This document shows positions 3,289 to 62,754 of a stretch of DNA of 64,000 nt, piece after piece. The translations under genes were made by a program, and so were the position numbers. The stretch is from Escherichia phage vB_EcoM-E33: sequence record OL780484.1; one strand, written 5' to 3'. Numbering within the stretch: position 1 is the stretch's first letter; each line of letters opens with the position of its first letter. The notes under the pieces are model-generated. The model was not told the DNA's origin, ran no database searches, and saw only the letters and a program-made list of their open reading frames with translations.

Positions 3289-3318
3289 GTTTACATACCA
3301 CAAGGAACGTGGTAGTAT
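3289..3318 (+). promoter_or_regulatory. T4-type early promoter (GTTTAC -35, TAGTAT -10)
   Basis: GTTTAC at 3289, ~18-nt spacer, TAGTAT, then conserved leader CTATCAACT and SD GAGGAAA before imm. Confidence 0.55.
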
Positions 3319-3348
3319 CCTTCCTATCAACTACATGAGGAAATTACA

Positions 3349-3585
3349 ATGGAAGCTTTAATCGTTAGTGCTGGTGTTTTAGGATTCGGTTCTCTGGTTA
3401 TTATGTTCATCGGTTACTTTTTACCATGGATTCTGGCTCTTCTGCGAGGCACTCGTAGTAATGTAGGAATTTTCTTCCTTAATCTCCTGTTAGGCTGGAC
3501 GATGATTGGTTGGGTAGTGGCTTTAATCTGGGCTATCGTCGCTGAACGTAAATCAAACGCACAAATCATTATTGTTAAACAATGA
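3349..3585 (+). CDS. imm: Immunity to superinfection membrane protein Imm
   Basis: 78-aa highly hydrophobic two-helix protein directly downstream of gene 43, as T4 imm. Confidence 0.8.
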   Translation: MEALIVSAGVLGFGSLVIMFIGYFLPWILALLRGTRSNVGIFFLNLLLGWTMIGWVVALIWAIVAERKSNAQIIIVKQ

Positions 3586-3726
3586 AAATAATTGTTTTAT
3601 TTCTTATAATGGCTGCCTTTACCGTTTATTGGGCAGTGGCAATTCCGCCAATGATTCCGACACTCATCATTGGATGGATTATTCTTATAGCACAAATTAA
3701 GTATAACTGTTTTAATTGAGGATATT

Positions 3727-4227
3727 ATGAAAAAGTTAATTATCGCAATGAGTATGCTCCTATCAGGTTGCGCGGTCCAATATGGTGATACAGTTTCGGC
3801 CGATGAAGTTGGTAAAGCTCGTATCGCAGCTGAACAGAAACAATTCGATGGCGAAATGAAATTCCGTGCAGGTTCTGGACTTGTGTACACCCGAGCTAAT
3901 AATCAATGCGGTAATAACTGTGCAAAATATGCTCAACAAGAAATCGAATTCCAACGTGAACAAGAGTCCAAGCGTGAAGCGGTACTAGCCAAACACCAGG
4001 CAGAAATGAAGCGTCAAGATGATTTGTACAAAAAGCAGAAACTGTATGCGATGTGCGTAAACCATATCAATCTACAGATTTCCATCCACGAGGCTCGTTA
4101 TTACGAAATGCTCGAAACCGAGAGCTTCGGTAAAGCTCGTGATTATAAGAAACAAATCGATAAGCTCAAGACCAAAGTACCGGCGGCAATAGAACAGTGT
4201 ATTGAAATCGGTAAAGATAAGATTTAA
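3727..4227 (+). CDS. Putative lipoprotein (signal peptide with lipobox LLSGC), coiled-coil rich
   Basis: N-terminus MKKLIIAMSMLLSGC; SD TGAGGA upstream. Confidence 0.6.
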   Translation: MKKLIIAMSMLLSGCAVQYGDTVSADEVGKARIAAEQKQFDGEMKFRAGSGLVYTRANNQCGNNCAKYAQQEIEFQREQESKREAVLAKHQAEMKRQDDLYKKQKLYAMCVNHINLQISIHEARYYEMLETESFGKARDYKKQIDKLKTKVPAAIEQCIEIGKDKI

Positions 4228-4287
4228 GCAATACCAATTTATTAAAAATAGTGTATAATGTACCTACATTCACTTGAGGAACAGATA

Positions 4288-10010: not shown

Positions 10011-11434
10011 AAACTATTTTGGCTCAACTGCTAGGCAATAGTGATTATTTCACTAAGGTCTGGCCTTATATGAATGATTCTTATTTTGACCAGGGTCCTG
10101 CAAAGACCCTTTTCAAAGAAATTAAAAAACACGTCAATGAATATAATGCAGTGCCTTCTAAGAACGCATTGAGCATTGCATTAGATAACAGTACGCTTTC
10201 AGAAGTTGAACATCAAGGCGCTAAAGAGCTTTTAAGTTCGCTGAACGCCGGGCCTGAAGACCAAGAATGGTTGGTTAAAGAGACGGAGAAATACGTTCAG
10301 AAAGCAGCGATGTATAATGCAACTTCAAAAATCATTGAAATCCAAACTAATGCCGACCTTCCAGTTGAGCAACAAAATAGAAAACTTCCAGGTATTGGTG
10401 CTATTCCAGATATCATGCGTGATGCATTATCGATTTGTTTCGATTCTGAATTAGGTCATGACTGGATGGATGACTATGAAGAACGATTCAAAAGTTATTC
10501 CGATAAAGCACGTAAGGTTCCGTTCCGTCTTAATATTCTGAATAAGATTACCAAAGGTGGTGCTGAGTTTGGTACTGAAAACGTATTGTTGGCAGGAACA
10601 AACGTAGGTAAGTCTCTTGGTCTTTGTTCATTGGCTGCTGATTACCTTCAATCTGGTTACGATGTTCTTTATATCTCCATGGAGATGGCAGAGGAAGTAT
10701 GTGCTAAGCGTATCGATGCCAACCTTCTGGACGTGTCGCTGGATGATATCGATGATGGTCACGTCTCGTGGCCTGAATATAAAGCTAAGATGGATAAATG
10801 GCGTTCAACTGCTACTTTAGGTCGTTTAAAGATTAAACAGTATCCTACTGGCGGTGCTAATGCCGATACATTCCGTGCATTATTAAACGAATACAAGCTC
10901 AAACAAAACTTTGTCCCACAGGTCGTTATCGTTGACTACTTGGCTATCTGTGCATCGTCTCGTACGAAAGTTTTCTCTGAAAACAGTTACGGATTGATTA
11001 AGATGGTTGCTGAAGAACTACGTGGACTTGCAGTAGAGAAGAAATTACTGTTGTGGACTGCAGCCCAGACTACTCGTGGTGCGAACGTTGCAGCCGAAAT
11101 CGATATGGCCGATATTGCTGAATCCTTTGGTATTGCACATACTGCAGACTTCATGTTGGGTGTGGTCGAGACAGAAGAGTTCGCTCAGATGGGTATGCAG
11201 ATGGTTAAGCAGCTTAAATCTCGTTATGGCGATAAGAGCTACTACAACAAATTTAAGATTGGTGTTAAGAAAGGAAATCAACGTTGGTACGAAGTTGAAG
11301 ATGATTCCAACCCAGGCCCAGTGAACACTGTTCGTGAGGCTACAGGTGAGATGAATCGCCAGGCCGAGGTCAATCGACAGACGCGTGTTAATAGAAGTGA
11401 TTTGGACGATTTAGCAGCATCTATCAAATTTTAA
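10004..11434 (+). CDS. 41: Replicative DNA helicase gp41 (DnaB-like)
   Basis: MVETILAQL… matches T4 gp41 MVEIILSHL…; Walker A GTNVGKS; GTG start at 10004 after SD AAGAGG (ORF track starts upstream at 9995). Confidence 0.93.
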   Translation: MVETILAQLLGNSDYFTKVWPYMNDSYFDQGPAKTLFKEIKKHVNEYNAVPSKNALSIALDNSTLSEVEHQGAKELLSSLNAGPEDQEWLVKETEKYVQKAAMYNATSKIIEIQTNADLPVEQQNRKLPGIGAIPDIMRDALSICFDSELGHDWMDDYEERFKSYSDKARKVPFRLNILNKITKGGAEFGTENVLLAGTNVGKSLGLCSLAADYLQSGYDVLYISMEMAEEVCAKRIDANLLDVSLDDIDDGHVSWPEYKAKMDKWRSTATLGRLKIKQYPTGGANADTFRALLNEYKLKQNFVPQVVIVDYLAICASSRTKVFSENSYGLIKMVAEELRGLAVEKKLLLWTAAQTTRGANVAAEIDMADIAESFGIAHTADFMLGVVETEEFAQMGMQMVKQLKSRYGDKSYYNKFKIGVKKGNQRWYEVEDDSNPGPVNTVREATGEMNRQAEVNRQTRVNRSDLDDLAASIKF

Positions 11435-11456
11435 GGAGCTTCGGCTCCTTTTTTGT
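11433..11456 (+). terminator. Rho-independent terminator (aaggagc-UUCG-gctcctt + T tract)
   Basis: Stem-loop followed by TTTTTGTTTT immediately after gene 41 stop. Confidence 0.6.
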
Positions 11457-11463
11457 TTTAAGG

Positions 11464-11492
11464 GTTTACATCTCCTGTAGGCGTGATACTAT
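11464..11492 (+). promoter_or_regulatory. T4-type early promoter
   Basis: GTTTAC, 17 nt, TGaTACTAT, then CTATCAACT leader. Confidence 0.55.
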
Positions 11493-11516
11493 AGACCTAT
11501 CAACTTGGAGAACAAA

Positions 11517-11834
11517 ATGAAAACCATCGACTGTAAAGCAGAATATAAAGTGTATTATCATGGAAGTTGTAGTGTTGCTAATATCGGTAATATGCTTTGT
11601 CCTCCTGAGGAAACAGGAGTTCTGTCTGAAACCAGTCGTAAGAAAAACCTGAATCGTGTGTTCTTTACTGAAGATATCGGTTTGGCTAAGATTTATGCTG
11701 GACGTGCAGCCCGTTCAGTGGGAGGAGAACCTCGTCTTTATCGTGTAATTGCTCCGGTAGATGTGGTTTGTTTAAATGATACTAAAGGCGCTACGGTTTA
11801 TCATGCTGAATGGGCCTTCTGTGAGGAAATCTAA
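11517..11834 (+). CDS. Hypothetical protein with possible Arr/Tpt1-like ADP-ribosyltransferase fold (105 aa)
   Basis: ATG 11517 after SD GGAG; motifs VYYHGS … RVFFTEDIGLAKIYA … RLYRVIAP loosely resemble rifampin ADP-ribosyltransferase (Arr) family as I recall it. Confidence 0.5.
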   Translation: MKTIDCKAEYKVYYHGSCSVANIGNMLCPPEETGVLSETSRKKNLNRVFFTEDIGLAKIYAGRAARSVGGEPRLYRVIAPVDVVCLNDTKGATVYHAEWAFCEEI

Positions 11835-12038: not shown

Positions 12039-12098
12039 CAGTTTACATCAAAGGGATAATGCAGTATATTATCCCTATCAACTACCGAGGAGAACATT

Positions 12099-12392
12099 AT
12101 GAAAAAGTTATTAATCGCAGCAATTCTTGCCGTAGCATCATGTGGTACAGCCCCAGTTACTGCTGGACTTGATAAAGACCTTTGTGAATGGTCTATGACT
12201 GCAGACCAAGAATCAGTCGAACATCAGATTTATGCTGATATCATGAACATCACTAAACGTGACCGCCCTGATATGGTTAAAGAAGTGTCAGACCAATTGG
12301 CTTCAAGCGGCGTTATGCAGTATAACTATGTTCTGTATTGTGACGCTAATTTCGATAACAAAAACATCGTTAAAGAGGTGACAGGTGAATAA
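12099..12392 (+). CDS. Putative lipoprotein (lipobox VASC)
   Basis: MKKLLIAAILAVASCG… signal peptide; SD GAGGAG. Confidence 0.6.
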   Translation: MKKLLIAAILAVASCGTAPVTAGLDKDLCEWSMTADQESVEHQIYADIMNITKRDRPDMVKEVSDQLASSGVMQYNYVLYCDANFDNKNIVKEVTGE

Positions 12393-16316: not shown

Positions 16317-16320
16317 TTAT

Positions 16321-16345
16321 AAGGAACCTTCGGGTTCCTTTTTTT
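16321..16345 (+). terminator. Rho-independent terminator (aaggaacc-UUCG-ggttcctt + T7)
   Basis: 8-bp stem, UUCG loop, TTTTTTT tail right after soc. Confidence 0.7.
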
Positions 16346-16411
16346 GGTTTTAAGGGTTTACTTTCTAGGAAGGCCGTGTTAAGATGGTCTTATCTTATAG
16401 AGGAGAACACT

Positions 16412-16621
16412 ATGTTAAATCGTTGGATTAAACCAAATAAAACTTTGGATGAAATTATCGCTAATCATGTATTGAAAAAGTACTTTTATACTCCTTGGTA
16501 TACCGAAGTTATTGTCCATTCATTTATGATGCATGAAGACGGTTCTATCGAATTTAATGCTGAAATCCGTCACGAGACTGATGATAACGATAAAGTTGAA
16601 TTTAAACGAGGTTTCCTATGA
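16412..16621 (+). CDS. Hypothetical protein (69 aa)
   Basis: ATG 16412 after SD AGGAG; early promoter upstream. Confidence 0.45.
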   Translation: MLNRWIKPNKTLDEIIANHVLKKYFYTPWYTEVIVHSFMMHEDGSIEFNAEIRHETDDNDKVEFKRGFL

Positions 16622-17980: not shown

Positions 17981-18035
17981 AGTTTTACACCTCCTCCCTT
18001 CATGTTATAATGACCTCTAAATCACTGGAGGTCAT

Positions 18036-18605
18036 ATGAACATCGAACAAAAATGTCTTTATCAAGACCGAATCAATTCCAAATTCTCAAAACACGAACA
18101 GAATCTTTTAGAAAAATGTCTGGATGCTAAAAAAGACCCTAACTTCCATTACGACCTTGACAAACTGGTTCGCAAGCATGTTACTTCAGCGGTTCCAGTA
18201 GAGTTGTATCGTGGGATTACCACCAGAGAACTTGAGCAATTAGAGCTCCTTTCAGTAGGGTGTCAATGGTCTCCTGGTCGAGTTACTTCTTTTAGTACAC
18301 AATACTCTCAGGCTCGTCAGTTCGCAGGGGCGTGGGAATATGGAACCAAAACCATTTTAAGTCTCAGGAATGCACCGTTCATTTTCGACTACTACAACCA
18401 TGCTATAGACCTTGTTCTTGCAGGGAATGTAGACGCCCTTGAAATTGATGAAACTCGTATTGACCTCTATGATATGGTCGAAACTGAATGTGAGTTCATG
18501 GTCTCTAGCCAATCGCGATTTGAGATTGTTGCAATCGAAACCGTCAAAAGAGACCCGTATGATATCGAGTACAAAACAATTCATTTAAAAATGTTGGATT
18601 TTTAG
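18036..18605 (+). CDS. modB: Mod-family ADP-ribosyltransferase (ModB-like by position)
   Basis: 189 aa; ART triad-like motifs LYRG (Arg), SFSTQ (S-T-S-like), ECEFMV (E-x-E); SD GGAGG. Confidence 0.6.
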   Translation: MNIEQKCLYQDRINSKFSKHEQNLLEKCLDAKKDPNFHYDLDKLVRKHVTSAVPVELYRGITTRELEQLELLSVGCQWSPGRVTSFSTQYSQARQFAGAWEYGTKTILSLRNAPFIFDYYNHAIDLVLAGNVDALEIDETRIDLYDMVETECEFMVSSQSRFEIVAIETVKRDPYDIEYKTIHLKMLDF

Positions 18606-18659
18606 TTTACAGGCAAGGAAGCTTGTGGTACTATCTTTCTACCAACTGAGGAGAATAAT

Positions 18660-19274
18660 ATGTTATACCCTAACCACAGATTATCAGAGTTCTATGACAA
18701 TGTTAAGTGCGATGATTTCCGTGAAAACATTCAGTGTGAAATCGACCAGCAGTATTCTGATTTAGAACAGAGTACCCTCTGGCTGTGTATGGAAAATAAA
18801 CCGGATTGCATCCAAGAAACTCTGAATAAAATTATCCGTAAGAATCTGACTTCTGTAGTGCCTGACAAGCTGTACCGTGGAATTTCTAAGAAAACTTTGA
18901 AATACCTTGAATCGGTAGGATGTGTCGGCGCTACTATTGAATTTGACAGGGTAATGAGCTTCTCTAAAGATTTTAAGATTGCCCGTAATTTTGCTTCATA
19001 TAATTTTTACGGAACTAAAAATATTTTCTGTATTAACGATGCCCCCTTTGCATTTGATTATCAGGAAGCAATCTTTAAAATGATTTGTGGCGCTCCTCCC
19101 GAAGAGTTCAACGGGCCGTATCCTGAAATAACTCGAACTTCAAACTTACAACTAGTGAATGATGAGGATGAGATGATGTTCCCTGCGGGAACTACGCTGC
19201 GCGTAGACTCTATTGAGAAGGTTTATGGATGGCAAGATTATACATTATGGAATCTTTCCGTTCTTTCTTACTGA
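18660..19274 (+). CDS. modA: Mod-family ADP-ribosyltransferase (ModA-like by position), paralog of 18036..18605
   Basis: 204 aa; LYRG … SFSKD … FPAGTT; shared paralogous blocks with upstream gene; SD GAGGAG. Confidence 0.6.
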   Translation: MLYPNHRLSEFYDNVKCDDFRENIQCEIDQQYSDLEQSTLWLCMENKPDCIQETLNKIIRKNLTSVVPDKLYRGISKKTLKYLESVGCVGATIEFDRVMSFSKDFKIARNFASYNFYGTKNIFCINDAPFAFDYQEAIFKMICGAPPEEFNGPYPEITRTSNLQLVNDEDEMMFPAGTTLRVDSIEKVYGWQDYTLWNLSVLSY

Positions 19275-19414
19275 ACCACCCGGTTTAATTGAAAGGCAAA
19301 GTCCTTGATTCATTATACCGTCGAAAATTTAAAGCAAAAAAGTGTTTACTTTATCAAGCAACATGATACTATAGACACCTATCAACTAATCGTCCGTAAG
19401 ATGAGAAAAATACC

Positions 19415-20149
19415 ATGACCCCTGAATTTGAATTAAAGGTTTACAAACGTCGCGAACACACTAAAGCCTCTGCCAAAAAACGTGGTAAGGACTTCAATCT
19501 GTCTAGTAATTATGTTCGTAGACTTCTCGAACAAAAAGTGTGTGCTTATTCAGGCGAACGTTTTGATGAGAATTCAGTTAGTGATAAGATTTCATTTGAA
19601 CGTTTTAATAATGATATTGGTTATATCGAAGGTAATGTAATCCCAGTTAAAGTCAAGTACAATAGCTTACGTGCTGATTTGTCTTTAGATGAATTGAAAC
19701 GTGCACAGACTCGTTTAGCGTCCCGTATTTCAGGTGGTTCTAAAATGCCTAATAGTTTTAAAGTTACCCCAGATAATTATTATAAAATTCGTAAAATAGT
19801 TAAAAATATTAAAGATACCCAAAGAGGTCTTAAAAAGCGTGAAAAACGTCTTAAGGACCTTATTAAATCAGGAGCTACTGATAAGACCCCTTCTGTCATC
19901 GCGGTTAAGGCCCGTATCCATGGTTCTAACGCTTCAATAGGTACTATGGAAAAGGGTCTTAAATCTTTAATTGGTGGGCCTGATTGGCGTGTCAAGTTTA
20001 AATTGTCTGAAGCAGAAACGCGTTACGATATGTATGATAAAATTATTCAAGGTCTGGAGCGTTTAGAACACCTTTCTTTTATTGACAAAATGAAGTTGAA
20101 AAAAGGTCTTCCGCTGAATGCTTCAATTTTTTCACTGATTAGAGGTTAA
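19415..20149 (+). CDS. Hypothetical protein (244 aa; position of T4 srd)
   Basis: ORF track; early promoter upstream; N-terminal basic region; function unrecognised. Confidence 0.5.
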   Translation: MTPEFELKVYKRREHTKASAKKRGKDFNLSSNYVRRLLEQKVCAYSGERFDENSVSDKISFERFNNDIGYIEGNVIPVKVKYNSLRADLSLDELKRAQTRLASRISGGSKMPNSFKVTPDNYYKIRKIVKNIKDTQRGLKKREKRLKDLIKSGATDKTPSVIAVKARIHGSNASIGTMEKGLKSLIGGPDWRVKFKLSEAETRYDMYDKIIQGLERLEHLSFIDKMKLKKGLPLNASIFSLIRG

Positions 20150-22700: not shown

Positions 22701-22729
22701 GTTTACTTCTCCTCATGACATGATATTAT
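22701..22729 (+). promoter_or_regulatory. T4-type early promoter
   Basis: GTTTAC, 17 nt, TGaTATTAT, CTATCAAC leader, SD GAGGAGAA. Confidence 0.55.
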
Positions 22730-22756
22730 CTACCCTATCAACATGAGGAGAACAAA

Positions 22757-23266
22757 ATGAAAATTTATCGAGTGGAGTCATCGTTCAGTATCTTAGATAA
22801 CAGCGATGTTATAGCAATCACTCACCAACAGTGCCGCCAATTAACACCGTATAGAGGCTCGTTTGATGAATGGAGCGAAGGTTGGTTATTAGAAGTAGGT
22901 TTCGACAAACCTAATTTTAGACACCACCATACCAATAATAAAAATATTCCACTACCAGGTCAAGACAAGTTGTTGGTGGAAAATTCTAATAAAACCATTC
23001 GAACTAAGTGGAACCAGCCTGATTATGAAGGCTGTGATGATTATATTCCAGGTTGGTTTGTTAATCTCTACCATTTTGCTTTTGCCAGTGAGTATGATAT
23101 GATGCGCTGGTTCACTCGTGAAGAGCGTGAAGAATTATCTTCTAAAGGATTCTATCTTGCCGTTTACGAAATCCCTGAAGATGAGGTTGTCATTGGTGGC
23201 CACCAAGTAATGTTCCGCAAATCCCATGCTGAACTCGTAGATTTTATTGAATTGAGAACAATATGA
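22757..23266 (+). CDS. Hypothetical protein (169 aa)
   Basis: ORF track; early promoter and SD. Confidence 0.5.
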   Translation: MKIYRVESSFSILDNSDVIAITHQQCRQLTPYRGSFDEWSEGWLLEVGFDKPNFRHHHTNNKNIPLPGQDKLLVENSNKTIRTKWNQPDYEGCDDYIPGWFVNLYHFAFASEYDMMRWFTREEREELSSKGFYLAVYEIPEDEVVIGGHQVMFRKSHAELVDFIELRTI

Positions 23267-23811: not shown

Positions 23812-23884
23812 TAGTTTACTTTATCGAGAGCCATGTTATAATGGCTCTCATGGAGAATAAACTTATTAACCAAGAGAGAAAATT

Positions 23885-24436
23885 ATGATTACTATCGGTG
23901 AAATTGTTCGTGTATCCAAAGAATCTCGCTCAAAAGCCGCGGGTCGTTTTGTTGAAGTTGCTGGTATTCGTACTAATTTAGTAGGTGGAATTAAAGAAGT
24001 TAAAGTGCGTATTATTCCTAAAAATGGCCAGACTGAAACTCAATTCGCTTATGTGCATCCTAAATTCCTGGAATCAACTGAATTCACTGGACACATCGCT
24101 CCTGTAGTTGAAGAAGTTGAATCCCATGATGGGTATGTATGTGAAAGCAATGATATCCGTGGCGTAGTAGCTCAAGACGTTGAAACTATTGACCAATCTC
24201 ATGTTGGTGTTGATTTCAAATGGAAATTAGGTAAAGGTGTCTTTTTCGTTTCACCTAAACCGTTTGAATACAATTGCAAGTATGGTCCGACTTATGAAAC
24301 CACTAGTATGTCCGGTTACATCACAGACCAATGGGTTGAAGAAGGTGTTAAGCTGTATAACATCGTGTTCCTTGGCACCTTTAAAGTAGTTCCTGAAAGT
24401 TTTATTGTTGAGTACGCTGATATTCATTTTGCATAA
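23885..24436 (+). CDS. Hypothetical protein (183 aa), paralog B
   Basis: C-terminal block TDQWVEEGVKLYNIVFLGTFKVVPES; own early-type promoter (GTTTAC…TGtTATAAT). Confidence 0.5.
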   Translation: MITIGEIVRVSKESRSKAAGRFVEVAGIRTNLVGGIKEVKVRIIPKNGQTETQFAYVHPKFLESTEFTGHIAPVVEEVESHDGYVCESNDIRGVVAQDVETIDQSHVGVDFKWKLGKGVFFVSPKPFEYNCKYGPTYETTSMSGYITDQWVEEGVKLYNIVFLGTFKVVPESFIVEYADIHFA

Positions 24437-24508
24437 AGTTTAAAAACAGTATACAACAGGGTAGTAGTGTGATACTATTACCCTATCAACAAATGAGAGG
24501 AAAATAAA

Positions 24509-24727
24509 ATGGCTAAAGTTACTGTGAACTCGACTCGTGAAGAATTTGAAGATGTTCTGTTCAACCCTGATTTAATCGTGGTTCAAAAGGAACATTCTGA
24601 TACGTTTTCTCATTTATCGTCGGTTTATGTATACGAAAACCAAGGTGATGAAAACCCTATCTATGCGGTGTTCCGTGAAATCACTGCTGAAGGCACCGAC
24701 TTCTGGAAGGAAACTTATAATGCTTAA
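24509..24727 (+). CDS. Hypothetical protein (72 aa)
   Basis: ORF track; SD GAGAGGAAAA. Confidence 0.45.
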   Translation: MAKVTVNSTREEFEDVLFNPDLIVVQKEHSDTFSHLSSVYVYENQGDENPIYAVFREITAEGTDFWKETYNA

Positions 24728-25602: not shown

Positions 25603-25620
25603 GGGCTTCGGCCCTTTTAT
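25601..25620 (+). terminator. Terminator-like hairpin (aagggc-UUCG-gccctt + TTTTAT)
   Basis: Stem-loop overlapping stop of lipoprotein gene. Confidence 0.5.
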
Positions 25621-25644
25621 GCTTTAAGTGAAATGGGATAATAT
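25620..25644 (+). promoter_or_regulatory. Possible MotA-dependent middle promoter (TGCTTTA box + TAATAT -10)
   Basis: TGCTTTA at 25620-25626, 12-nt spacer, TAATAT; upstream of gene 39. Confidence 0.35.
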
Positions 25645-25668
25645 TCTCCTACTACATGAGGAAATAAC

Positions 25669-27719: not shown

Positions 27720-27769
27720 GGGGTTTACAAAGACCTGTGGTTATGATAGGATTATCTAGAGGTGAGAAT

Positions 27770-28093
27770 ATGATTATGCAAGATAACAGTATAGTGAACA
27801 CTGACAATCTAGCTTTATCCTTTATGGAAACGGCCATTCGTAACTGTAAAGATGAAGGAGTAGTGACTACAAGCGGTAAGGGACTTGAATACCTTAAGGC
27901 TGTAAAATCTATTGCCTTAAAGATTAAAGATAACCAGGCGCTCTCTCCTGTGGTCCAGGAAAAGGTTTTAGAGATAATGTATCGCCACAGAGAGCACAAA
28001 AGTACAATGGGTTCTATGAGAAGAATTCTGGCTGAACTAGGTTCTACCAGAGAATATGTTCAACATGAGGTAGTTAAAAATGACAAACTTTAA
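27770..28093 (+). CDS. Hypothetical protein (107 aa)
   Basis: ATG 27770 after SD GAGGTGAG; early promoter upstream. Confidence 0.45.
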   Translation: MIMQDNSIVNTDNLALSFMETAIRNCKDEGVVTTSGKGLEYLKAVKSIALKIKDNQALSPVVQEKVLEIMYRHREHKSTMGSMRRILAELGSTREYVQHEVVKNDKL

Positions 28094-32510: not shown

Positions 32511-32583
32511 ATTTTTTAAATAAGTGTTTACATACACCAAGGATGGTGTTACTATCTTCCTATCAACTTGAGAGGAAAACAAA

Positions 32584-32841
32584 ATGAAATTCTATTACGC
32601 CAAACATAAAATTACCCGTGAGTTTGTATCGTTTTCAACCTTTTCAGATGAAGAAGACTTTTGCATCACTGGTCTGGATTTATCTAAATATGAAACCGAC
32701 CAGCCTTATTTGACCACTCATGACGAGATTCAACGTTTGGTGAACGGTGAGCTAAATAATTCTTACTGCACTCAAATTTACCCTGCTTTGAAAAAAGCTA
32801 TCAATGCTAATCAGATTGAAATCATTGAGGTGGAATTGTGA
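32584..32841 (+). CDS. Hypothetical protein (85 aa), tandem paralog 1
   Basis: MKFYYAKHKIT… ; SD GAGAGGAAAA; early promoter. Confidence 0.5.
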   Translation: MKFYYAKHKITREFVSFSTFSDEEDFCITGLDLSKYETDQPYLTTHDEIQRLVNGELNNSYCTQIYPALKKAINANQIEIIEVEL

Positions 32842-33104: not shown

Positions 33105-33249
33105 GTAGCAAAACGTGGTGCCTTATTTGGATGGCCTGTATCCCAGTGATTTGCGTGTGTTTTAGTTTATTGTTGTGGAAATTGGCATAAATCAGTATAC
33201 ATCTCCATTAATCATGATATTATAGACCTATCAACTAATGGAGATGATT

Positions 33250-33360
33250 ATGAAAAACTTACTTAAAGCAATTTGGAACATGTTTGTGTTGTTAATGGTA
33301 TTGAGCATTTTCCCAATCGTTTTTATGATTGACCATGTACGTGTATTCTTTAACTTCTGA
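33250..33360 (+). CDS. Small hydrophobic peptide (36 aa)
   Basis: ATG after SD GGAGATGA; single TM-like segment; unverified. Confidence 0.3.
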   Translation: MKNLLKAIWNMFVLLMVLSIFPIVFMIDHVRVFFNF

Positions 33361-33593: not shown

Positions 33594-33938
33594 ATGTCTA
33601 AATTATTTTTTGGTAATCGCAACATTATGTTCTTTGAGCAACTCAGTCTTAAAGAGGCATTGAAGGCCTTCAATCAAGAACTGGTTACTGGGCTAGATTC
33701 AAAAACTATGGCAAGTGCGGATTTCGTTTTCGTTCAAGACCCGGATACAGGTTTTTATCGATTCATCAAATTCCGTATGAGCATGGACCCTGACTATCGT
33801 AGTGCTTACTACGTGAGTTATGAAAACGTTATCAAAGAATTACGTGATACCTATGGACGCGCTTTGAACCCACTGAACAAGGTTTATAATGCTTCTTTTT
33901 ATACGAGCGGATTTATTTTAGAACAGCTACAAAAATAG
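33594..33938 (+). CDS. Hypothetical protein (114 aa)
   Basis: ATG 33594 after SD AAGGAAA. Confidence 0.45.
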   Translation: MSKLFFGNRNIMFFEQLSLKEALKAFNQELVTGLDSKTMASADFVFVQDPDTGFYRFIKFRMSMDPDYRSAYYVSYENVIKELRDTYGRALNPLNKVYNASFYTSGFILEQLQK

Positions 33939-34015
33939 TTTACAACCTCGAGAATCATGTTATAATGGTTCTCGTTGACTGGATAACAAAACATTAATCT
34001 ACTGAGGAAATTGAT

Positions 34016-34465
34016 ATGAATACTTATATGACTCGCCGTAACGTTCTGTCTGCTGGTGCTACTACTGTTGCTTATGTTAAGAACGGTGAATACCAAAATG
34101 GCAAACCTTCTAAAGAAATCTCTGCTCAGCCAGGCTTCTACTTCTTTGTTAAAGGTGAAGCGGATTCTCGTGTCGTAGCTGCACGCTTTTATGTCGGTAA
34201 TCAACGTTCGGCTCAAGGTCTCGATGGTATCGTGGCTAACATTCGTAAGAAACGTTCTCAATCAGCCCGCACTATGGCAGTGAACGGTGTTGTGTATGAA
34301 GTTCTTTATGTACCAGCTTCTAAGATGAAACCTCTGACTACAGGTTTTGGTAAGGGTCAAATTGCAATGGCTTTCACTCGTAATCATAGTTCCGACCTCC
34401 AGACACTGGAAGAAATGAACCGTATGTTGGCTGATAACTTTAAATTCATCCTGCAGGCTTACTAA
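34016..34465 (+). CDS. Hypothetical protein (149 aa)
   Basis: Early-type promoter (GTTTAC…TGtTATAAT) and SD GAGGAAA. Confidence 0.5.
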
Positions 34466-36332: not shown

Positions 36333-36356
36333 GGAACCTTCGGGTTCCTTTTTTGG
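36331..36356 (+). terminator. Rho-independent terminator (aaggaacc-UUCG-ggttcctt + T tract)
   Basis: Same hairpin sequence as at 16321; TTTTTTGGGTTT tail. Confidence 0.7.
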
Positions 36357-36373
36357 GTTTAGTGCAAAAAAGT

Positions 36374-36402
36374 GTTTACATCTGCTTTAAACATGATACT
36401 AT
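36374..36402 (+). promoter_or_regulatory. T4-type early promoter (motA)
   Basis: GTTTAC, 17 nt, TGaTACTAT, CTATCAAAT leader. Confidence 0.55.
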
Positions 36403-36440
36403 AGACCTATCAAATAAATGAACTGAAACGGAGATACAAA

Positions 36441-37073
36441 ATGTCTAAAATTACTTATATCATCAAAGCTTCTGAAGACGTCCTGAATGAAAAAACTGCT
36501 TCGATCTTAGTACATATCATCAAGCATAACTTCATCACTTCAGGCGAAGTCCGTGAAGCCCTGAGTGAGCATTTTAGTGCTGCGGTAGTTAACTCTAACA
36601 TCGGTGTATTGATTAAGAAAGGATTCATCGAAAAATCTGGTGACGGTTTAGTGGCTACAGGTGAAGCAATGGACCTAGTTCAAAAAGCCGCCGACCTGTT
36701 CGCTTCTGAAAATGCTCCAGAGATGTTGGAAAAACGTAAAACACGTAGCTCACGTGGTGTTACTCCTGAAATGGTAACCATGGCCGATGAAGTTAAAGCT
36801 TTATTAGAAGATCGTATCGAGATTCGTGAAATTGCTGAAAACCGTAGCAACCTTGAAGTTCGATTCGCCAAACGTACCAATGGTATTCGTCAAATTGAAG
36901 TCCGTCGTGACGGAATGATGCGTATCTTCGGTTATAATATGACTGATAAAGAAAAACAAGTGTTTACTTCCTTGAATCTTGATGTTAAGATTAAGACTGG
37001 TGGTAAGAATACTTATATCGACTTCCAAAATGTATCATCTGAAGTTATCAAAACCGTAACCAACGCAATTTAA
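36441..37073 (+). CDS. motA: Middle-transcription activator MotA
   Basis: 210 aa; MSKITYIIKASEDVLNEKTASIL… close to T4 MotA as recalled. Confidence 0.92.
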   Translation: MSKITYIIKASEDVLNEKTASILVHIIKHNFITSGEVREALSEHFSAAVVNSNIGVLIKKGFIEKSGDGLVATGEAMDLVQKAADLFASENAPEMLEKRKTRSSRGVTPEMVTMADEVKALLEDRIEIREIAENRSNLEVRFAKRTNGIRQIEVRRDGMMRIFGYNMTDKEKQVFTSLNLDVKIKTGGKNTYIDFQNVSSEVIKTVTNAI

Positions 37074-38755: not shown

Positions 38756-38784
38756 GTTTACAATCCCTAAGGATATGTTAGTAT
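38756..38784 (+). promoter_or_regulatory. T4-type early promoter (asiA)
   Basis: GTTTAC, 17 nt, TGtTAGTAT, CTATCAGAT leader. Confidence 0.5.
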
Positions 38785-38825
38785 AGCCCTATCAGATAAT
38801 GACGTACTGAATTGAAGAGAATATT

Positions 38826-39101
38826 ATGACTAAAATTGAAATTGTTTCCGAAATTGCTACTATTGTTTCCATTTTGATTAAAACGGATTGTGAAGACATC
38901 ATGCAACGTCGTGATGAGTTTATTGCCTTTTTGAATGAGTTGGGTATTCGTAATGAACATGGAAAGGAACTTAATGGTTTGTCTTATAACAAATTATTTA
39001 AGTCATTAACTGAAGATGAACGTGACACTCTTATTGAGCAATTTAATGAAGGGTATGAAGATATACACCGTTACTTAATGATGTATACCTCCAATTTCTA
39101 A
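38826..39101 (+). CDS. asiA: Anti-sigma70 factor AsiA
   Basis: 91 aa; …IAFLNELGI…LIEQFNEGYEDIHRYLMMYTS matches T4 AsiA. Confidence 0.92.
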   Translation: MTKIEIVSEIATIVSILIKTDCEDIMQRRDEFIAFLNELGIRNEHGKELNGLSYNKLFKSLTEDERDTLIEQFNEGYEDIHRYLMMYTSNF

Positions 39102-39769: not shown

Positions 39770-39777
39770 TATTTATA
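39770..39777 (-). promoter_or_regulatory. T4-type late promoter TATAAATA (holin t)
   Basis: Reverse complement of tatttata, ~19 nt upstream of t start. Confidence 0.6.
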
Positions 39778-39788
39778 GAGCTTATGCA

Positions 39789-40595: not shown

Positions 40596-40609
40596 GGGGC
40601 CGAAGCCCC
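40596..40609 (-). other. ggggc-UUCG-gcccc hairpin between gene 37 stop and gene 38 SD
   Basis: Read on - strand: …GAGGGGCUUCGGCCCCUUGGAGGUUUAUAUG. Confidence 0.5.
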
Positions 40610-40614
40610 TCTTA

Positions 40615-43600: not shown

Positions 43601-43941
43601 TTAGAAATAAGCTCGCCACCTTCGGTCATTATCTGGCCAGCGGCAATAATGTCACGAGTTACACGAGCAATACCGGTTAAATTAAAATCACCTGTTTGGG
43701 TAAAGGTACCATTTAGGGTGTAATCGCCAGTCTGGTTGTAGTTACCGGTATGAATAACATTGCCGTCAATATTACCACCTTTAGCAAAGCCAAGGTCGAT
43801 AATCGCTCCAGTATCGTCTTTAGTAAAAAGTAAACGGTCCTTTAAGTTAATAGCCAGTTCGCCTTCAGCCAACTGGGCCGGTGCTGGACGTACACCGGCT
43901 ACTTTACTTCTTTTAAATTGGATTTGCTTTAAAGTAGCCAT
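40615..43941 (-). CDS. 37: Long tail fiber distal subunit gp37 with C-terminal intramolecular-chaperone (S74-like) domain
   Basis: 1108 aa; C-terminus …SDIRVKKDL…GYTY…[15 protein letters not shown]… + coiled coil. Confidence 0.93.
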
Positions 43942-49899: not shown

Positions 49900-49928
49900 G
49901 TTTACTTCTTCTAGGGTCGTGATATAAT
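49900..49928 (+). promoter_or_regulatory. T4-type early promoter (rnh), divergent from gene 34 late promoter
   Basis: GTTTAC, 17 nt, TGaTATAAT. Confidence 0.55.
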
Positions 49929-49959
49929 GAACCTCTACACTAATTGGACAGAGGTTCAT

Positions 49960-50907
49960 ATGAACGATTTAGATTTTTTACTTCCTGAAGAAGACCAACA
50001 AAAAGATGGATTTTTACTCCTAGATTTCAGCCAAATCATTATGGCTGCAGCTTTCCAAGAGTTTGGTGAGAATGCTGGATTTCCTAAAGTAACTACAGCA
50101 ATGCTTCGACACCTCGTGTTGAATTCAATTAAGAAAAATATTAAAGACTTTAAAAAACAGGGGTACAACCAACTGGTTATTTGTGTTGATAACTCTAAAT
50201 CAGGTTATTGGCGTCGTCGCTATTCACCTTATTATAAGAAAAACCGTGCTAAGGCACGTGACGAATCACCATTTGATTGGGAAGGTTTATTCACAGCAAT
50301 GCATATTATTGTTGATGAACTGGAACAAAACATGCCTTATATTGTTATGAATATCGATACAATCGAAGCTGATGACCATATTGCTGTTTTAACCCGAATC
50401 CTCACGGCTTTAGGCCATCCAGTTATGATTGGTTCTTCGGATGGCGACTTTACTCAACTCCATAAATTCCCTGGGGTAAAACAATGGTCTCCAATGCAGA
50501 AAAAATTCGTCAAAACAAAATCTGGCGATTCATTATTAGATTGTGTAACTAAGGTTGTTAAAGGCGACCGCAAGGATAACGTCGCGAGTATTAAAGTTCG
50601 TGGTGATTACTGGTTGACGATGGTTGAAGGCGAACGTACTCCTAGCACTCGTGCCAAGGAACTTGAAGCAATTGCTCTGAATTATTACGACCATGATATA
50701 ATTAAAACACTTCTTACTGAAGAACAATATGAACGTTTCTGTGAAAACCAAATCTTAATTGATATGGACTTTATTCCAGATGATATTGTTGCTTTAATTA
50801 CTGAAAGATATAATACGTATAACAAACCTTCGAAATCTAAAGTTTATCCTTATTTCGTTAAATCTGGTTTGTCTAAACTAACTGCTACAGTAGCTGATTT
50901 TTATTAA
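49960..50907 (+). CDS. rnh: RNase H (5'-3' exonuclease / flap endonuclease)
   Basis: …DGFLLLDFSQI…YWRRRYSPYYKKNRAKARDES…EADDHIAVL…SSDGDFTQLHK… matches T4 RNase H; ATG 49960 chosen by alignment to T4 N-terminus (track start 49927). Confidence 0.92.
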   Translation: MNDLDFLLPEEDQQKDGFLLLDFSQIIMAAAFQEFGENAGFPKVTTAMLRHLVLNSIKKNIKDFKKQGYNQLVICVDNSKSGYWRRRYSPYYKKNRAKARDESPFDWEGLFTAMHIIVDELEQNMPYIVMNIDTIEADDHIAVLTRILTALGHPVMIGSSDGDFTQLHKFPGVKQWSPMQKKFVKTKSGDSLLDCVTKVVKGDRKDNVASIKVRGDYWLTMVEGERTPSTRAKELEAIALNYYDHDIIKTLLTEEQYERFCENQILIDMDFIPDDIVALITERYNTYNKPSKSKVYPYFVKSGLSKLTATVADFY

Positions 50908-53167: not shown

Positions 53168-53196
53168 GTTTACAACGCCTTTAAACGTGATACTAT
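53168..53196 (+). promoter_or_regulatory. T4-type early promoter
   Basis: GTTTAC, 17 nt, TGaTACTAT, CTATCAACT. Confidence 0.55.
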
Positions 53197-53224
53197 AGAC
53201 CTATCAACTACATGAGGAAATAAA

Positions 53225-53614
53225 ATGGAAATCGGTAAAACTTATGAACTTCGTCCTGAATGCATTAAAGACTTTATTGAAATGGACGAATATGAAAATA
53301 ATAAAAGCATGGTCGACCTTATCCAAGACAACGGAGGTTGGTTTGAAGTAAAGGATATGTTGACTATGGATGGCGACAAATTTGTGACTGAAATCGAATG
53401 TGCAAATGGCGAGATTTATAATGCATTTGGGTTGGTGCCAAATTATTTTGAGTTGCATGAAGATGAGTTCTATTGCTTCTGTGAATATGTTGTGGAAGAT
53501 AAAGAAATCGATGAGCCTATTGCTAAGGCCGGTGTGACTCAAATCCATTGCATTGTCACCGAACAGAACGTTGACCAAATCATTGAACTTTTGCAAAAAA
53601 CTTTTAAGGCCTAA
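53225..53614 (+). CDS. Hypothetical acidic protein (129 aa)
   Basis: SD GAGGAAA. Confidence 0.5.
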   Translation: MEIGKTYELRPECIKDFIEMDEYENNKSMVDLIQDNGGWFEVKDMLTMDGDKFVTEIECANGEIYNAFGLVPNYFELHEDEFYCFCEYVVEDKEIDEPIAKAGVTQIHCIVTEQNVDQIIELLQKTFKA

Positions 53615-53878: not shown

Positions 53879-53907
53879 GTTTACAATGCCTTTAAACATG
53901 ATACTAT
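53879..53907 (+). promoter_or_regulatory. T4-type early promoter
   Basis: GTTTAC, 17 nt, TGaTACTAT, CTATCAACT. Confidence 0.55.
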
Positions 53908-53939
53908 AGACCTATCAACTAATGAGTGAGGAAAATAAA

Positions 53940-54167
53940 ATGGCTAAGGTTAATATTGATATCGTTGATTTTGAATACACTTACGAAGTTATCCGTAATC
54001 GTTATCCTTCTTTAGTTATGACCCATATTAAAGATACCCAATTCTGTAGTATGCAAATTGAAGTCCAAGGTCCTCTTGAAGACCTTACCCGCTTTATGGC
54101 TGACGAGTATTGTGACGGTATGCACCTGGAAGACGCTAAATTTTATATGGGCCTAATTCAAAAATAA
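53940..54167 (+). CDS. Hypothetical protein (75 aa)
   Basis: ATG 53940 after SD GAGGAAAA. Confidence 0.45.
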
Positions 54168-54222
54168 GTTTACACCAGGCTATGGTAGTGATACTATAGC
54201 CTTATCAACTAAGGAGAATAAA

Positions 54223-55905
<1,683 letters not shown>

Positions 55906-60255: not shown

Positions 60256-61400
60256 TTGAATTATATGATAACTTGATGGCCCTGGTTAAAAACTCGACTA
60301 AATCTAAGTTCTTCTTTAAAGACTTTCAGAGTGCTCTAGGAGTCAACTATCGCATCTTTAGTTATAACTACGCATCATACAGTGATTGGTTGGAAGACGG
60401 CGCACTAGAGTGCCGAGGCATTATGTTTGAAATGGACGAGAAAGGTCCTGTACGTATTGCCGCTCGTCCTATGCAAAAGTTCTTTAACCTCGACGAAAAC
60501 CCTATGACTATCGGTCTGGATTTGTCGCCAGAAAATATCGACCTCGTAATGGCTAAGGAAGATGGTTCTCTGATTTCTACATTCATGGACCGACAGTATC
60601 TTTCTGTTAAATCTAAAGGCTCTATCCATTCATCAATGGTGCATGATTCTTTACGGTTCCTTCGTCTCCCTGAGAACGAGGCTTTTGCCGCACGTCTAGA
60701 AGAAATCACCAAAGCTGGGTATACCTGCAACCTTGAATATGTTGCACCTACCAACCGTATCGTGCTGGCTTACCAAGAAACAAATCTCATCCTGTTGAAC
60801 GTTCGTAATAATGAAACCGGTGAATATATTCCATATGCGGAATTGTTTAAGGACGGCGCACTGCGTAAGCATTTGGTTGAAAGCTATGAGCTCGCTGAGG
60901 GCGATTTCGTAGAAAACATCCGTAAGCAGGAAGGCATTGAAGGTTTCATCTTTGTACTGAAAGATGGTACGTTCTTTAAACTCAAAACCGCCTGGTACAG
61001 TGCACTGCATCATACCAAAGATTCCATTAACAACAACGAACGTTTGTTTGAAGTTGTAGTGGCTGGTGGAACTGATGACCTTCGTGGTCTGTTCAGTACA
61101 GATTCCTTTGCTATCGAGAAAATCGATGCCTTTGAACGCATCCATTTAGATTACCTAGAACAATCATTAGCCTTGTTAGAAGCAGCTTACTCTCAACTCA
61201 AAGGTCGCGACCGTAAAGACTATGCCGTTACTGGACAGCTAATCCTTAAGGACTTCCCAGGGTTGTTCTCTATTCTTATGCAGGCGTACGTAGGCGGTAT
61301 TAATTATGATACGGTCATGGACCAGATTAACTCTGTGTTCTTGAAAAATCATAAGGCCCAAATCCCTGAAAAATATTTGAAAGAAATTGTGGTAGAGTAG
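60252..61400 (+). CDS. 63: RNA ligase 1 / tail fiber attachment protein gp63
   Basis: 382 aa; …YRIFSYNYASYSDWL…ALECRGIMFEMDE…LTKEDGSL… matches T4 Rnl1 incl. ligase motif I K-x-D-G. Confidence 0.93.
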   Translation: MIELYDNLMALVKNSTKSKFFFKDFQSALGVNYRIFSYNYASYSDWLEDGALECRGIMFEMDEKGPVRIAARPMQKFFNLDENPMTIGLDLSPENIDLVMAKEDGSLISTFMDRQYLSVKSKGSIHSSMVHDSLRFLRLPENEAFAARLEEITKAGYTCNLEYVAPTNRIVLAYQETNLILLNVRNNETGEYIPYAELFKDGALRKHLVESYELAEGDFVENIRKQEGIEGFIFVLKDGTFFKLKTAWYSALHHTKDSINNNERLFEVVVAGGTDDLRGLFSTDSFAIEKIDAFERIHLDYLEQSLALLEAAYSQLKGRDRKDYAVTGQLILKDFPGLFSILMQAYVGGINYDTVMDQINSVFLKNHKAQIPEKYLKEIVVE

Positions 61401-61458
61401 TTTACATCTCCTCATGACGTGTTAGTATAGACTTACCAACTAATGAGGAGAAAACAAA

Positions 61459-61959
61459 ATGAATATGCAAATGATTACTAACGAAATGGTTGTTAAGGCT
61501 TTTGGTGACTCTACTGACGGCATCCAAGTTTTTAAAGGTTCTCGTGCAGTAGGTTACCTGACCGATCTTCGTGTCACTTTAGCTAAAAATGCTAAAAAGA
61601 AAATCAAGCAAAAAGAATACTCTACCCGTTATGCAGAAGAAAAGCGTGAAGCAATGCCTCAAGCTGTTAACTCTATGGTCGAGTTTCTCCAAAACAACCT
61701 TTCCAAATACGATGCCGAGGTGTTTATTAATATTAGCCAACCTAATGTTAAAATCTCAGGCATCACGTTCTATTTGATTTGCGACCCATTAAGCGACAAG
61801 TTTAATCGCCTTGGCATTTCAAGTCCTTACCATACCGCTGAAGAATTGTGTTTTATGTTCGAAACGTACAAAATTCAGTGTGAAAATCCTAAAACAGTTC
61901 TTATTAATTCCCTGTCACGTGATGACATCATCGAGATTATTACCAAATGTCTAAATTAA
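61459..61959 (+). CDS. alc: Alc-like host transcription shutoff protein
   Basis: 166 aa (T4 Alc 167 aa); position between 63 and spanins as in T4; sequence not independently recognised. Confidence 0.55.
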   Translation: MNMQMITNEMVVKAFGDSTDGIQVFKGSRAVGYLTDLRVTLAKNAKKKIKQKEYSTRYAEEKREAMPQAVNSMVEFLQNNLSKYDAEVFINISQPNVKISGITFYLICDPLSDKFNRLGISSPYHTAEELCFMFETYKIQCENPKTVLINSLSRDDIIEIITKCLN

Positions 61960-62300
61960 GTATTTACCTTTTAGCTGGAGCCATTGCAGTAGGTGCTTAC
62001 GGTTTTATTTCGTATCAATCAAGTCGTATTGATACCCTTACTGAAGAACTGAAAACTACCCAGCAAACGGCCAAACAGAATGCCGAAGCCGTAGAGGACC
62101 TACGTGGCCAATACTCGGATATTGAATTCCGTACTACTGAAATGAATGCCCGAATGGATAAAATTAAGGTAGAAAATGAAAAGCTCCGTAAAGATTCGAA
62201 GAAGGCGCACGTGGTGGCAAGTAAGCCAGGATTGGTCGAAAAACAAATCAACAAGTCCTTCGATTCCTTTACAGAAGACTTCAGGAGCATTACAGAATGA
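61947..62300 (+). CDS. i-spanin (Rz-like; T4 PseT.3 equivalent)
   Basis: N-terminal TM segment (IYLLAGAIAVGAYGFISY) followed by coiled-coil periplasmic domain. Confidence 0.7.
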   Translation: MSKLSIYLLAGAIAVGAYGFISYQSSRIDTLTEELKTTQQTAKQNAEAVEDLRGQYSDIEFRTTEMNARMDKIKVENEKLRKDSKKAHVVASKPGLVEKQINKSFDSFTEDFRSITE

Positions 62301-62587
62301 TTAAATTATCTGTGGTAGTATTATCTATTGGCTTGTTAGTTGGATGTGCCCAGGACATCCCTGTAGTGCCTAAGCAACAACTACATCCTTCATGGCCACA
62401 ACCTATTGCCAAACATAATGTTAAATGGCAGGTTAAGGTAATCGATGGTAAAGCTTGGGTTGGAATGCCATTTGAAGATTCCCAAGAACATCGTATTTGG
62501 TTGAATGACGTAAAAAGATATGTACAAGACCAGAAATCTATGTTATGTTATTATCGTTCTGGACTAAAAGAGGGGAAGTGCAAATGA
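62297..62587 (+). CDS. o-spanin lipoprotein (Rz1-like; T4 PseT.2 equivalent)
   Basis: Lipobox LLVGC, Pro-rich mature region, C-terminal Cys; start overlaps i-spanin stop. Confidence 0.7.
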   Translation: MIKLSVVVLSIGLLVGCAQDIPVVPKQQLHPSWPQPIAKHNVKWQVKVIDGKAWVGMPFEDSQEHRIWLNDVKRYVQDQKSMLCYYRSGLKEGKCK

Positions 62588-62754
62588 TTGAGACATGCGT
62601 TTGCGGTTGGGATGCCGTTAGATTTGGCGCTGCATTCTTTTGTTTTGGGATTGTGTTCAGCATGTGTATGCATGGTCTTTTCGGAAAGTAGTTTACAAAC
62701 TCTTGGGAGCAGAGTATAATGCTCCTACGGATTATAAAAATTGAGGAAATTATT

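Follow-up and report, generated by a model that had tools for sequence, protein, structure and literature searches.

A conserved block at the predicted start site of repeated early promoter cassettes in Escherichia phage vB_EcoM-E33

In a 64,000-nucleotide (nt) stretch of Escherichia phage vB_EcoM-E33 (OL780484.1), hereafter the window, many early promoters are followed by an almost identical ten-nucleotide box, CCTATCAACT, which raises the question of why a short sequence between the -10 element and the Shine-Dalgarno sequence (SD) should be held so constant. A preliminary description of the window had regarded the box as a conserved transcribed leader, and had offered as explanations a post-transcriptional signal, for instance an endoribonuclease or RNA-binding-protein site, or a constraint on initial transcription. 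Our analysis points toward the latter: with a probability of roughly 60%, we propose that the repeated units are immediate-early promoter cassettes in which the box serves as the start-site and initial-transcribed module of very strong promoters, its uniformity being due in part to recombination. Seen in this way, the conserved block refines a known type of promoter within one lineage and is not a new kind of signal.

Nucleotide comparison places the window in Dhakavirus, as a JS98/WG01-like T-even phage: Dhakavirus WG01 is 97% identical to a 4-kb segment of the window, and QL01, IME08, JS10 and JS98 (all Dhakavirus, Tevenvirinae) show 91-96% identity to the same segment. The gene order is T4-like, with the early and middle genes on the + strand (imm, the uvsX region, sp, mod-like genes, srd, motB, cef, ndd, motA, asiA, rnh, 32, frd, td, nrdA/B and alc) and a tail-fibre block on the - strand at approximately 39-50 kb. 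The pattern GTTTAC-N16-18-TANNNT is matched 21 times in the window, always on the + strand, where 3.1 matches are expected and none of 100 shuffles reaches 21. Curation leaves 22 early promoter units, all on the + strand, including two with a GTATAC and one with a TTTTAC variant of the -35 hexamer. The cassettes precede, in the same orientation, imm, sp, two mod-like genes, srd, motB, cef, ndd, motA, asiA, rnh, frd.1-3 and alc. Judged by their -35/-10 spacing, TGn motif, A-rich UP-like tract and downstream orthologues of T4 early genes, the units would qualify as T4-type early promoters. The repetition is also evident in an unbiased repeat search, in which the cassette is the largest direct-repeat family (D1 with 10 copies, D2 with 6 copies of 63 nt). 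Every one of the positions listed in the preliminary description (3289, 11464, 19344, 22701, 24450, 32525, 33200, 36374, 53168, 53879, 54168 and 61399) proves to be a genuine unit.

When a unit is counted as box-bearing at seven or more matching positions out of ten, a level that a random site reaches with a chance of 3%, the box is present in 16 of the 22 units. The earlier estimate of about 20 units is borne out as to their number, but the near-invariant box is not common to all of them: six units lack it (16356, which has a 6/10 relative only, 17983, 23814, 27723, 33938 and 62691), and the match at 49900 is just 7/10. With at most one mismatch, CCTATCAACT occurs 18 times in the window against 4.5 +/- 2.1 expected, and no shuffle out of 100 reaches that count. 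The coupled pattern TANNNT-NNN-CCTATCAAC, again with at most one mismatch, gives 10 matches against 0.49 expected, all on the + strand; nine of them lie in early promoters and the tenth, at 60738, lacks a GTTTAC ahead of it. The box goes with the early class alone, since none of the MotA-box middle promoter and TATAAATA late promoter candidates listed in the window carries it. Beside these, the MotA-box middle promoter of gene 39 (25620-25671) is followed by ...CTACTACATGAGGAAATAACATG, which shares the ACTACATGAGGAAAT leader/SD segment with the cassettes at 3289 and 53168, though not the CCTATCAA part.

The box is anchored to the -10 element. It starts 3 nt past the hexamer in 13 of the 16 box-bearing units and 4-5 nt past it in the other three (standard deviation 0.56), while its distance to the SD varies from 0 to 19 nt (standard deviation 5.5), and in alignments of orthologous promoters the indels fall directly 3' of the box. 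In 13 units the A of CCTA occupies the canonical start position, 7 nt past the -10. In line with this, the coordinate in the name of early promoter Pe133295 in the T4 record is that of the equivalent A, 7 nt past TATTAT in ...TATTATagCTCTACCAAA. By the canonical spacing and by analogy with this T4 promoter, we infer that +1 is the A of CCTA, which implies that the box spans approximately -3 to +7 and that only 7 nt of it are transcribed. Together with the a-G-a that frequently precedes it, the box would thus cover the stretch from the discriminator through the start site to the seventh transcribed base, and would not be a leader element between +1 and the SD. The preliminary description needs correction in that it treated the whole of the box as transcribed leader. 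A constraint on initial transcription, in turn, fits the anatomy, with a box locked to the -10 and floating relative to the SD, indels directly after it and a predicted +1 inside it. Alignment of the units on the -10 gives 1.5, 1.1 and 0.84 bit of information at -3, -2 and -1 (two C and a T), similar to the values of the -35 hexamer; T-15 and G-14 reach 1.2 and 1.7 bit, and A at -43 to -39 holds 0.25-0.8 bit. Additionally, the box is associated with the type of -10 hexamer, being present in 15 of 17 units with TAYTAT or TAGTAT and in one of five with TATAAT (Fisher p = 0.009).

Comparison among copies and among phages indicates that the box is under purifying conservation. Compared pairwise, the 16 box-bearing units show an identity of 0.84 in their boxes, whereas their spacers reach 0.38, the 10 nt that follow the box 0.39 and the sequence ahead of the -35 again 0.38; the value of 0.84 is inflated, since the units were selected for having the box, and the informative part is the contrast with the flanks together with the orthologues. 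Box and spacer identity are uncorrelated (r = -0.01), and where the spacers have fallen to background identity (0.36 or lower), as in 71 pairs, the box is still 0.85 identical. The motA, frd.1, frd.2 and alc promoters of wV7 (Tequatrovirus), p000v (Mosigvirus) and TH15 (Gaprivervirus) keep the box or a close variant of it, the Mosigvirus form being CCTATCAACAACAYGAGGA, next to spacers unrelated to those of the window. Particularly, at the frd.2 promoter (53168) the box is invariant in seven orthologues from three genera, bar one C-to-T change, and at the frd.3 promoter (53879) 6-7 of the 14 spacer positions have changed within Dhakavirus while the box is unchanged.

The box is therefore present in four genera and is not specific to Dhakavirus. 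Pattern searches of the T4 genome find TANNNT-NNN-CCTATCAACT at the denV, trna.4 and ndd.4 promoters and relaxed matches at approximately seven sites, so that T4, wV7, p000v and TH15 all have the box; its absence from related phages, named in the preliminary description as a refutation, is thus not borne out. Its frequency, however, differs widely: T4 has about 39 immediate-early promoters (PMC3184105), 5-7 of which carry the box (roughly 15%), as compared with 14-16 of 22 here (~70%). In Klebsiella phage JD18 (Jiaodavirus) the arrangement GTTTAC-N17-TGnTAYTAT-A is kept, but the box is absent. What the early promoters of all five genera examined do have in common, JD18 included, is a G-poor, A/C-rich composition from +1 to +9 (4-9% G, against 21% in the genome). 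In IMG/VR, multi-copy occurrences of the box are confined to T-even genomes of ~170 kb.

The cassettes also behave in ways that suggest recombination. Sub-families can be told apart by their spacers (36374/53168/53879; 22701/61400; 3289/32526), and gene conversion between cassette copies may have taken place. In CLBP2 (Dhakavirus; locus 3544-3945), two tandem motA cassettes flank an extra open reading frame (ORF) of ~77 amino acids where the window (36365-36441) has a single hybrid cassette, a difference that reads as a cassette-bounded insertion or deletion. CLBP2 further carries extra small ORFs directly after the SD/ATG of the cassettes at 53168 and 62691 (window 53222-53246 and 62754-62767; CLBP2 21150-21497 and 31547-31992), and its resident genes are pushed downstream by the extra ORFs, without a promoter of their own. 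In this small sample, cassette-associated indels account for three of about five early-region junctions with CLBP2. Two copies of a terminator-like hairpin, TAAGGAACCTTCGGGTTCC(T)n, which are 97% identical, lie at 16320-16350 and 36330-36360, in each case just upstream of an early promoter, and the terminator and promoter parts of the cassettes thus appear to be shuffled as separate modules. In RB49, PeSL (promoter-early stem-loop) cassettes cross over in the interval from the -10 to the SD or ATG (PMC2839356), which is the zone where the box lies.

These findings allow us to propose how the cassettes may work. Unmodified E. coli sigma-70 RNA polymerase would read a module ordered as A-rich upstream tract, -35 GTTTAC, 17-18 nt spacer, extended -10 (TGnTAYTAT), a-G-a-CCTATCAACT, short variable linker, SD and ATG. 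In the block, positions -6 to -4 would form the discriminator, the A of CCTA, preceded by a pyrimidine at -1, would be the start site, and the first seven bases of the transcript would begin there; its single purine in a C/T context would fix the start point, and the G-free, A/C-rich initial transcribed sequence may speed clearance by a polymerase that the UP, -35, TGn and -10 elements together hold tightly. The block would also leave an unstructured 5' end ahead of the ribosome-binding site. Recombination among the cassettes, as portable PeSL-type modules attached to different early genes, would both exploit and reinforce their near-identity. The effect on promoter escape and start-site choice, like the exact +1 and gene conversion between the copies, is inferred.

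Several observations weigh against this proposal. The exact sequence is dispensable for early promoter function, given that few T4 early promoters carry it. A sequence imposed by the polymerase should recur in JD18, on the assumption that its Klebsiella host has a very similar polymerase, and it is absent there; likewise, a box demanded by RNA polymerase alone should follow the sigma-70-dependent middle promoters as well, and it does not. In the open complex, no sequence-specific contact is known for positions +3 to +7, and the escape effect is drawn from work on other phage promoters. The link between the box and the -10 hexamer may stem from the shared ancestry of one cassette family instead of from function. 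Finally, the start site in this phage is a prediction, with +1 placed by spacing and by the T4 promoter name. The lack of the box in middle promoters, in JD18 and in most T4 early promoters argues against a pure polymerase optimum and makes its exact sequence partly a lineage habit.

A different role would lie in the RNA: immediate-early transcripts would carry AUCAACU(A) at their 5' end as a signal recognised after transcription by a nuclease or RNA-binding protein, through 5'-end-dependent decay or capping, or as an enhancer of translation by the ribosome or S1. We consider this unlikely. It would account for the seven of ten box positions that are transcribed and for +3 to +7, which have no obvious role in the open complex, as well as for the confinement of the box to the early class even though middle promoters use the same sigma factor, and for its conservation in four genera; moreover, dedicated decay systems target T4 early mRNAs, and NAD-capping has been reported for T4 RNAs starting with A. 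Yet the box keeps a constant position with respect to the -10 but not to the SD and ATG, its strongest conservation lies at -3 to -1, outside the RNA, and three of its ten positions are untranscribed. Away from promoters, within transcripts, it is not above chance; most T4 early promoters do without it; and Rfam covariance models at gathering score return 0 matches on both strands of the 64-kb window, so that no Rfam family speaks for an RNA element. The endoribonuclease or RNA-binding-protein site suggested at the outset is thus probably not the explanation, and the nuclease idea has its real counterpart one element downstream, at the cassette SDs. The cleavage consensus of RegB/S1 in T4 early mRNAs is GG*AGRAYARAA (PMC3014915), and GGAGRAYARAA is matched exactly on the + strand three times only, at 11507-11517, 22747-22757 and 54213-54223, all of them cassette SDs; GGAG occurs in 10 of the 22 cassette SDs. 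The RegB site, in the SD region, lies 1-19 nt past the box, which itself contains no GGA and was rejected as a RegB target.

The box could, on the other hand, have no function and owe its conservation to the copying of one cassette family (TGATACTATAGACCTATCAACT), helped by gene conversion and PeSL-type recombination. The shared spacers of the sub-families, the cassette-bounded indels and the tandem cassettes of CLBP2, the tie to one -10 hexamer type (p = 0.009), the much higher frequency in Dhakavirus (14-16/22) than in T4 (5-7 of ~39) and the RB49 crossovers in the box zone are all in keeping with it. A hitch-hiking sequence should, however, decay as the spacer does, and the contrast between the two makes ancestry alone an improbable account: the 71 promoter pairs with background spacers are still 85% identical in the box, orthologues in other genera keep it next to a wholly replaced spacer, and at frd.3 it is unchanged beside a spacer diverged at 6-7 of 14 positions within Dhakavirus. 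As an operator, bound by a phage or host protein on immediate-early start sites, the box would lie exactly over the start site of the early class alone, in a sequence specific to the phage lineage and not to the polymerase, as JD18 illustrates, and it might be behind the shut-off that early promoters undergo a few minutes into infection, whose mechanism two reviews leave unexplained, stating it to be unknown and independent of AsiA and ModA (PMC2988021, PMC3014915). Such a function is very unlikely, as all early promoters are shut off although 6 of 22 here and most of those in T4 lack the box, which has no dyad or repeat symmetry and for which no candidate protein has been identified. An IHF-type site (WATCAANNNNTTR) is completed at no copy: the box supplies TATCAA (WATCAA), but the TTR half is never present, and CYTAYCAANNNNTTR has 0 matches in the window. 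A broader version, in which the -3 to +7 block goes beyond the polymerase optimum as a class-specific mark of immediate-early units, either an operator through which a phage factor would bring about shut-off or a 5'-terminal RNA tag, AUCAACU, that steers transcript fate, also seems quite unlikely. The reading as a start-site and initial-transcribed module remains the one that we prefer.

Further candidates for the box were dropped. A boxA/nut-like antitermination leader agrees by eye with the rrn boxA (TGCTCTTTAACAA) at only about 6 of 11 positions, with only AUCAACU in the RNA. Pairing of the leader with the 16S rRNA 3' end was rejected on geometry, as the box lies 5' of the SD and only the last three rRNA nucleotides are left. 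A palindromic operator, TGATA-N9-TATCA, made up of the TGn/-10 and the box, simply has the promoter TGnTA as its left arm and loses its pairing at 3289, 32526, 38756 and 61400; it was judged coincidental.

The individual units vary around the common plan. The cassette before imm (superinfection immunity; 3289..3351) has its -35 at 3289-3294, a TAGTAT -10 at 3313-3318, the box CCTATCAACT at 3323-3332 (offset 4) and the ATG at 3349. The cassette at 11464..11519, whose downstream gene is phrog_2110, of unassigned function, is preceded by a terminator-like hairpin at ~11433-11456 and continues with TACTAT at 11487-11492, a full box (10/10) at 11496-11505, a predicted +1 A at 11499, the SD GGAGAACAAAA at 11507, which fits the RegB/S1 consensus exactly, and the ATG at 11517. 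Before sp (spackle; 12041..12101), a stem GGGATAAT/ATTATCCC encloses the -10, TATATT at 12065-12070, and is accompanied by a full box (10/10) at 12074-12083 and an ATG at 12099. The unit at 16356..16414 follows the terminator hairpin at 16320-16345 and has a degenerate box, CTTATCTTAT (6/10), at 16389-16398; it is the orthologue of a T4 promoter with the leader ...ATTATCTTATAGAGGAG. Two Mod-type ADP-ribosyltransferase genes come next, the first preceded by a promoter of the form TTTTAC ... TATAAT without the box (17983..18038; 6/10) and the second by a cassette with TACTAT and the box variant TCTACCAACT (8/10) at 18638-18647 (18605..18662). In the srd cassette (19344..19417), the box at 19378-19387 is complete (10/10) at offset 5, and the leader after it, cgtccgtaagatg, is orthologous to that of T4, whose copy lacks the box.

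Among the units that follow, the cassette at 22701..22759 carries the box as CCTATCAACA at 22734-22743 (9/10, offset 4) and the SD GGAGAACAAAA at 22747, and its spacer ttctcctca is the reverse complement of its own SD region. The motB promoter (23814..23887; TATAAT) has no box, and a 9-bp stem, gagagccat/atggctctc, encloses its -10 (z = -6.6). The cef cassette (24449..24511; GTATAC -35) again has CCTATCAACA (9/10), at 24482-24491, with a stem GGGTAGTAGTG/TACTATTACCC overlapping the -10. The unit at 27723..27772, with a TAGGAT -10, is preceded by the terminator hairpin gggccttcgggccc and has no box. A full box (10/10) is found at 32559-32568 in the cassette 32526..32586, which belongs by its spacer (caccaagga) to the sub-family of 3289, and at 33227-33236 in the cassette 33195..33252 (GTATAC -35) before a small ORF, where the spacer catctccatt is the reverse complement of the unit's own SD region, aatggagatg. 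The ndd promoter (33938..34018; TATAAT) lacks the box, and a stem encloses its -10.

The motA cassette (36374..36443) follows the terminator hairpin at 36330-36355 and carries CCTATCAAAT (9/10) at 36406-36415; a further GTTTAC-N18-TAAGAT at 36962-36991, within the motA reading frame, could drive the next gene as an internal early promoter or have arisen by chance. The asiA cassette (38756..38828) has the variant CCTATCAGAT (8/10) at 38788-38797, and the rnh promoter (49900..49962; TATAAT) the weak relative CCTCTACACT (7/10). In the rnh leader (49929-49962), a possible hairpin, gaacctct...agaggttc, would cover the SD, with similar sequences in CLBP2 and the T4-like wV7. The full box (10/10) is present before frd.2 (53168..53227; box 53200-53209), where a terminator hairpin stands just upstream, and before a frd.3-like ORF (53879..53942; box 53911-53920). 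The frd.1 cassette (54168..54225) combines CTTATCAACT (9/10) at 54201-54210 with the SD GGAGAATAAAA at 54213 and a stem GGCTATGGTAG/ACTATAGCC overlapping the -10. Before alc (61400..61461), the variant CTTACCAACT (8/10) occupies 61432-61441 and the spacer tctcctcat is the reverse complement of the unit's own SD region. The last promoter (62691..62757; TATAAT) has no box, and a stem gggagc/gctcc(t) encloses its -10.

In all, 13 of the 22 units have a stable stem-loop (z < -2), located in the core region, that is, in the spacer or overlapping the -10, in 8/22 and upstream, with a terminator-like form, in 6/22; nine units have none. Inverted repeats pair the spacer with the -10/discriminator at 23814-23860, 24449-24495, 54168-54215, 12041-12085, 62691-62735 and 33938-33985, and may correspond to the PeSL stem-loops described for RB49. 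The frd.1 stem is kept by means of different sequences, GGCTAT..ATAGCC here and GGGTA..TACCC in wV7, and the frd.3 spacer of B01 and Ec2, AGGTCTATAG, matches the reverse complement of CTATAGACCT exactly. With regard to the three units whose spacer is the reverse complement of their own SD region (22701, 33195 and 61400; 22707-22755, 33201-33248 and 61406-61455), read-through transcripts from upstream would have their SD masked, whereas transcripts from the local promoter would not. The complementarity is strong in these three, but the own-versus-other comparison over the 22 units is marginal (p = 0.049), and an anti-SD role of the spacers against read-through was set aside as a general property.

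Outside the early units, the distal tail-fibre/adhesin region on the - strand (39777-43755) has no blastn match to CLBP2, while its flanks are ~90% identical. On this sequence comparison it is probably a replaced host-range module.

For genome annotation, the 45-60 nt cassette with its start-site block provides a precise marker of where immediate-early units lie and begin, both in JS98-like phages and in other T-even phages of Escherichia, and marks likely recombination joints for the swapping of accessory genes. It also forms a natural promoter series, in which everything from the discriminator through the start site to the seventh transcribed base is constant and the spacer is free, and which could serve as a test bed for start-site choice and promoter escape. 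Were the operator or RNA-tag reading true, the block would be a concrete cis-element for the long-unexplained early shut-off in T-even phages.

As regards known systems, a consensus of the T4 early promoter (Pe) was reportedly given by Liebig and Ruger in 1989. A literature search with the box sequence, which did not take in the primary consensus papers (Liebig & Ruger 1989; Miller 2003), returned unrelated primer sequences only and no paper that writes out the block. In this regard, a review mentions, for T4 early promoters, 'additional regions of consensus' outside the UP, -35, TGn and -10 elements (Hinton 2010; PMC2988021), and early promoters of RB69, RB49 and 44RR prefer C at -3 to -1 (PMC1524935). 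The units of the window resemble T4 early promoters in their GTTTAC -35, 17-18 nt spacer, TGn extended -10, TAnnAT -10 and A-rich UP-like tract, and in the genes downstream (motA, asiA, alc, imm, sp, srd, mod, ndd and frd.1-3); the very same box stands at the T4 denV, trna.4, ndd.4 and frd.1 promoters, and close variants at Pe133295 and upstream of imm.1. They differ in that the block is found in ~70% of early promoters here and in roughly 15% in T4, and in that the Dhakavirus block is nearly invariant and coupled to a TAYTAT/TAGTAT -10.

The PeSL cassettes of RB49/phi1, T4/PST and KVP40/nt-1 (Arbiol 2010, PMC2839356; Comeau 2014, PMC4122927) share with the present ones the succession of AT-rich tract, early promoter, SD and ATG, with a stem-loop in part of the units here, the repetition through early regions and at indel junctions between close relatives, and the crossover zone from the -10 to the SD; in RB49/phi1, stem-loops are described at the positions seen here, ahead of the promoter, within its spacer or across the -10. 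Unlike the cassettes described here, however, the published ones are listed with no conserved start-site module, and a clearly stable stem-loop is present in just 13 of our 22 units; these papers mention JS98 only in passing, for the gene 43 region. T5 N25 and T7 A1 (e.g. PMC12464699) are likewise very strong multi-element promoters in which clearance, rather than binding, is expected to be limiting and the sequence from +1 to ~+10, which governs escape, is non-random, although the T-even block is unrelated in sequence to their initial transcribed sequences; the comparison suggests a possible working mode and not family membership. Taken together, T4 early promoters and PeSL cassettes are already well described, and what sets the Dhakavirus version apart is its unusually uniform start-site block.

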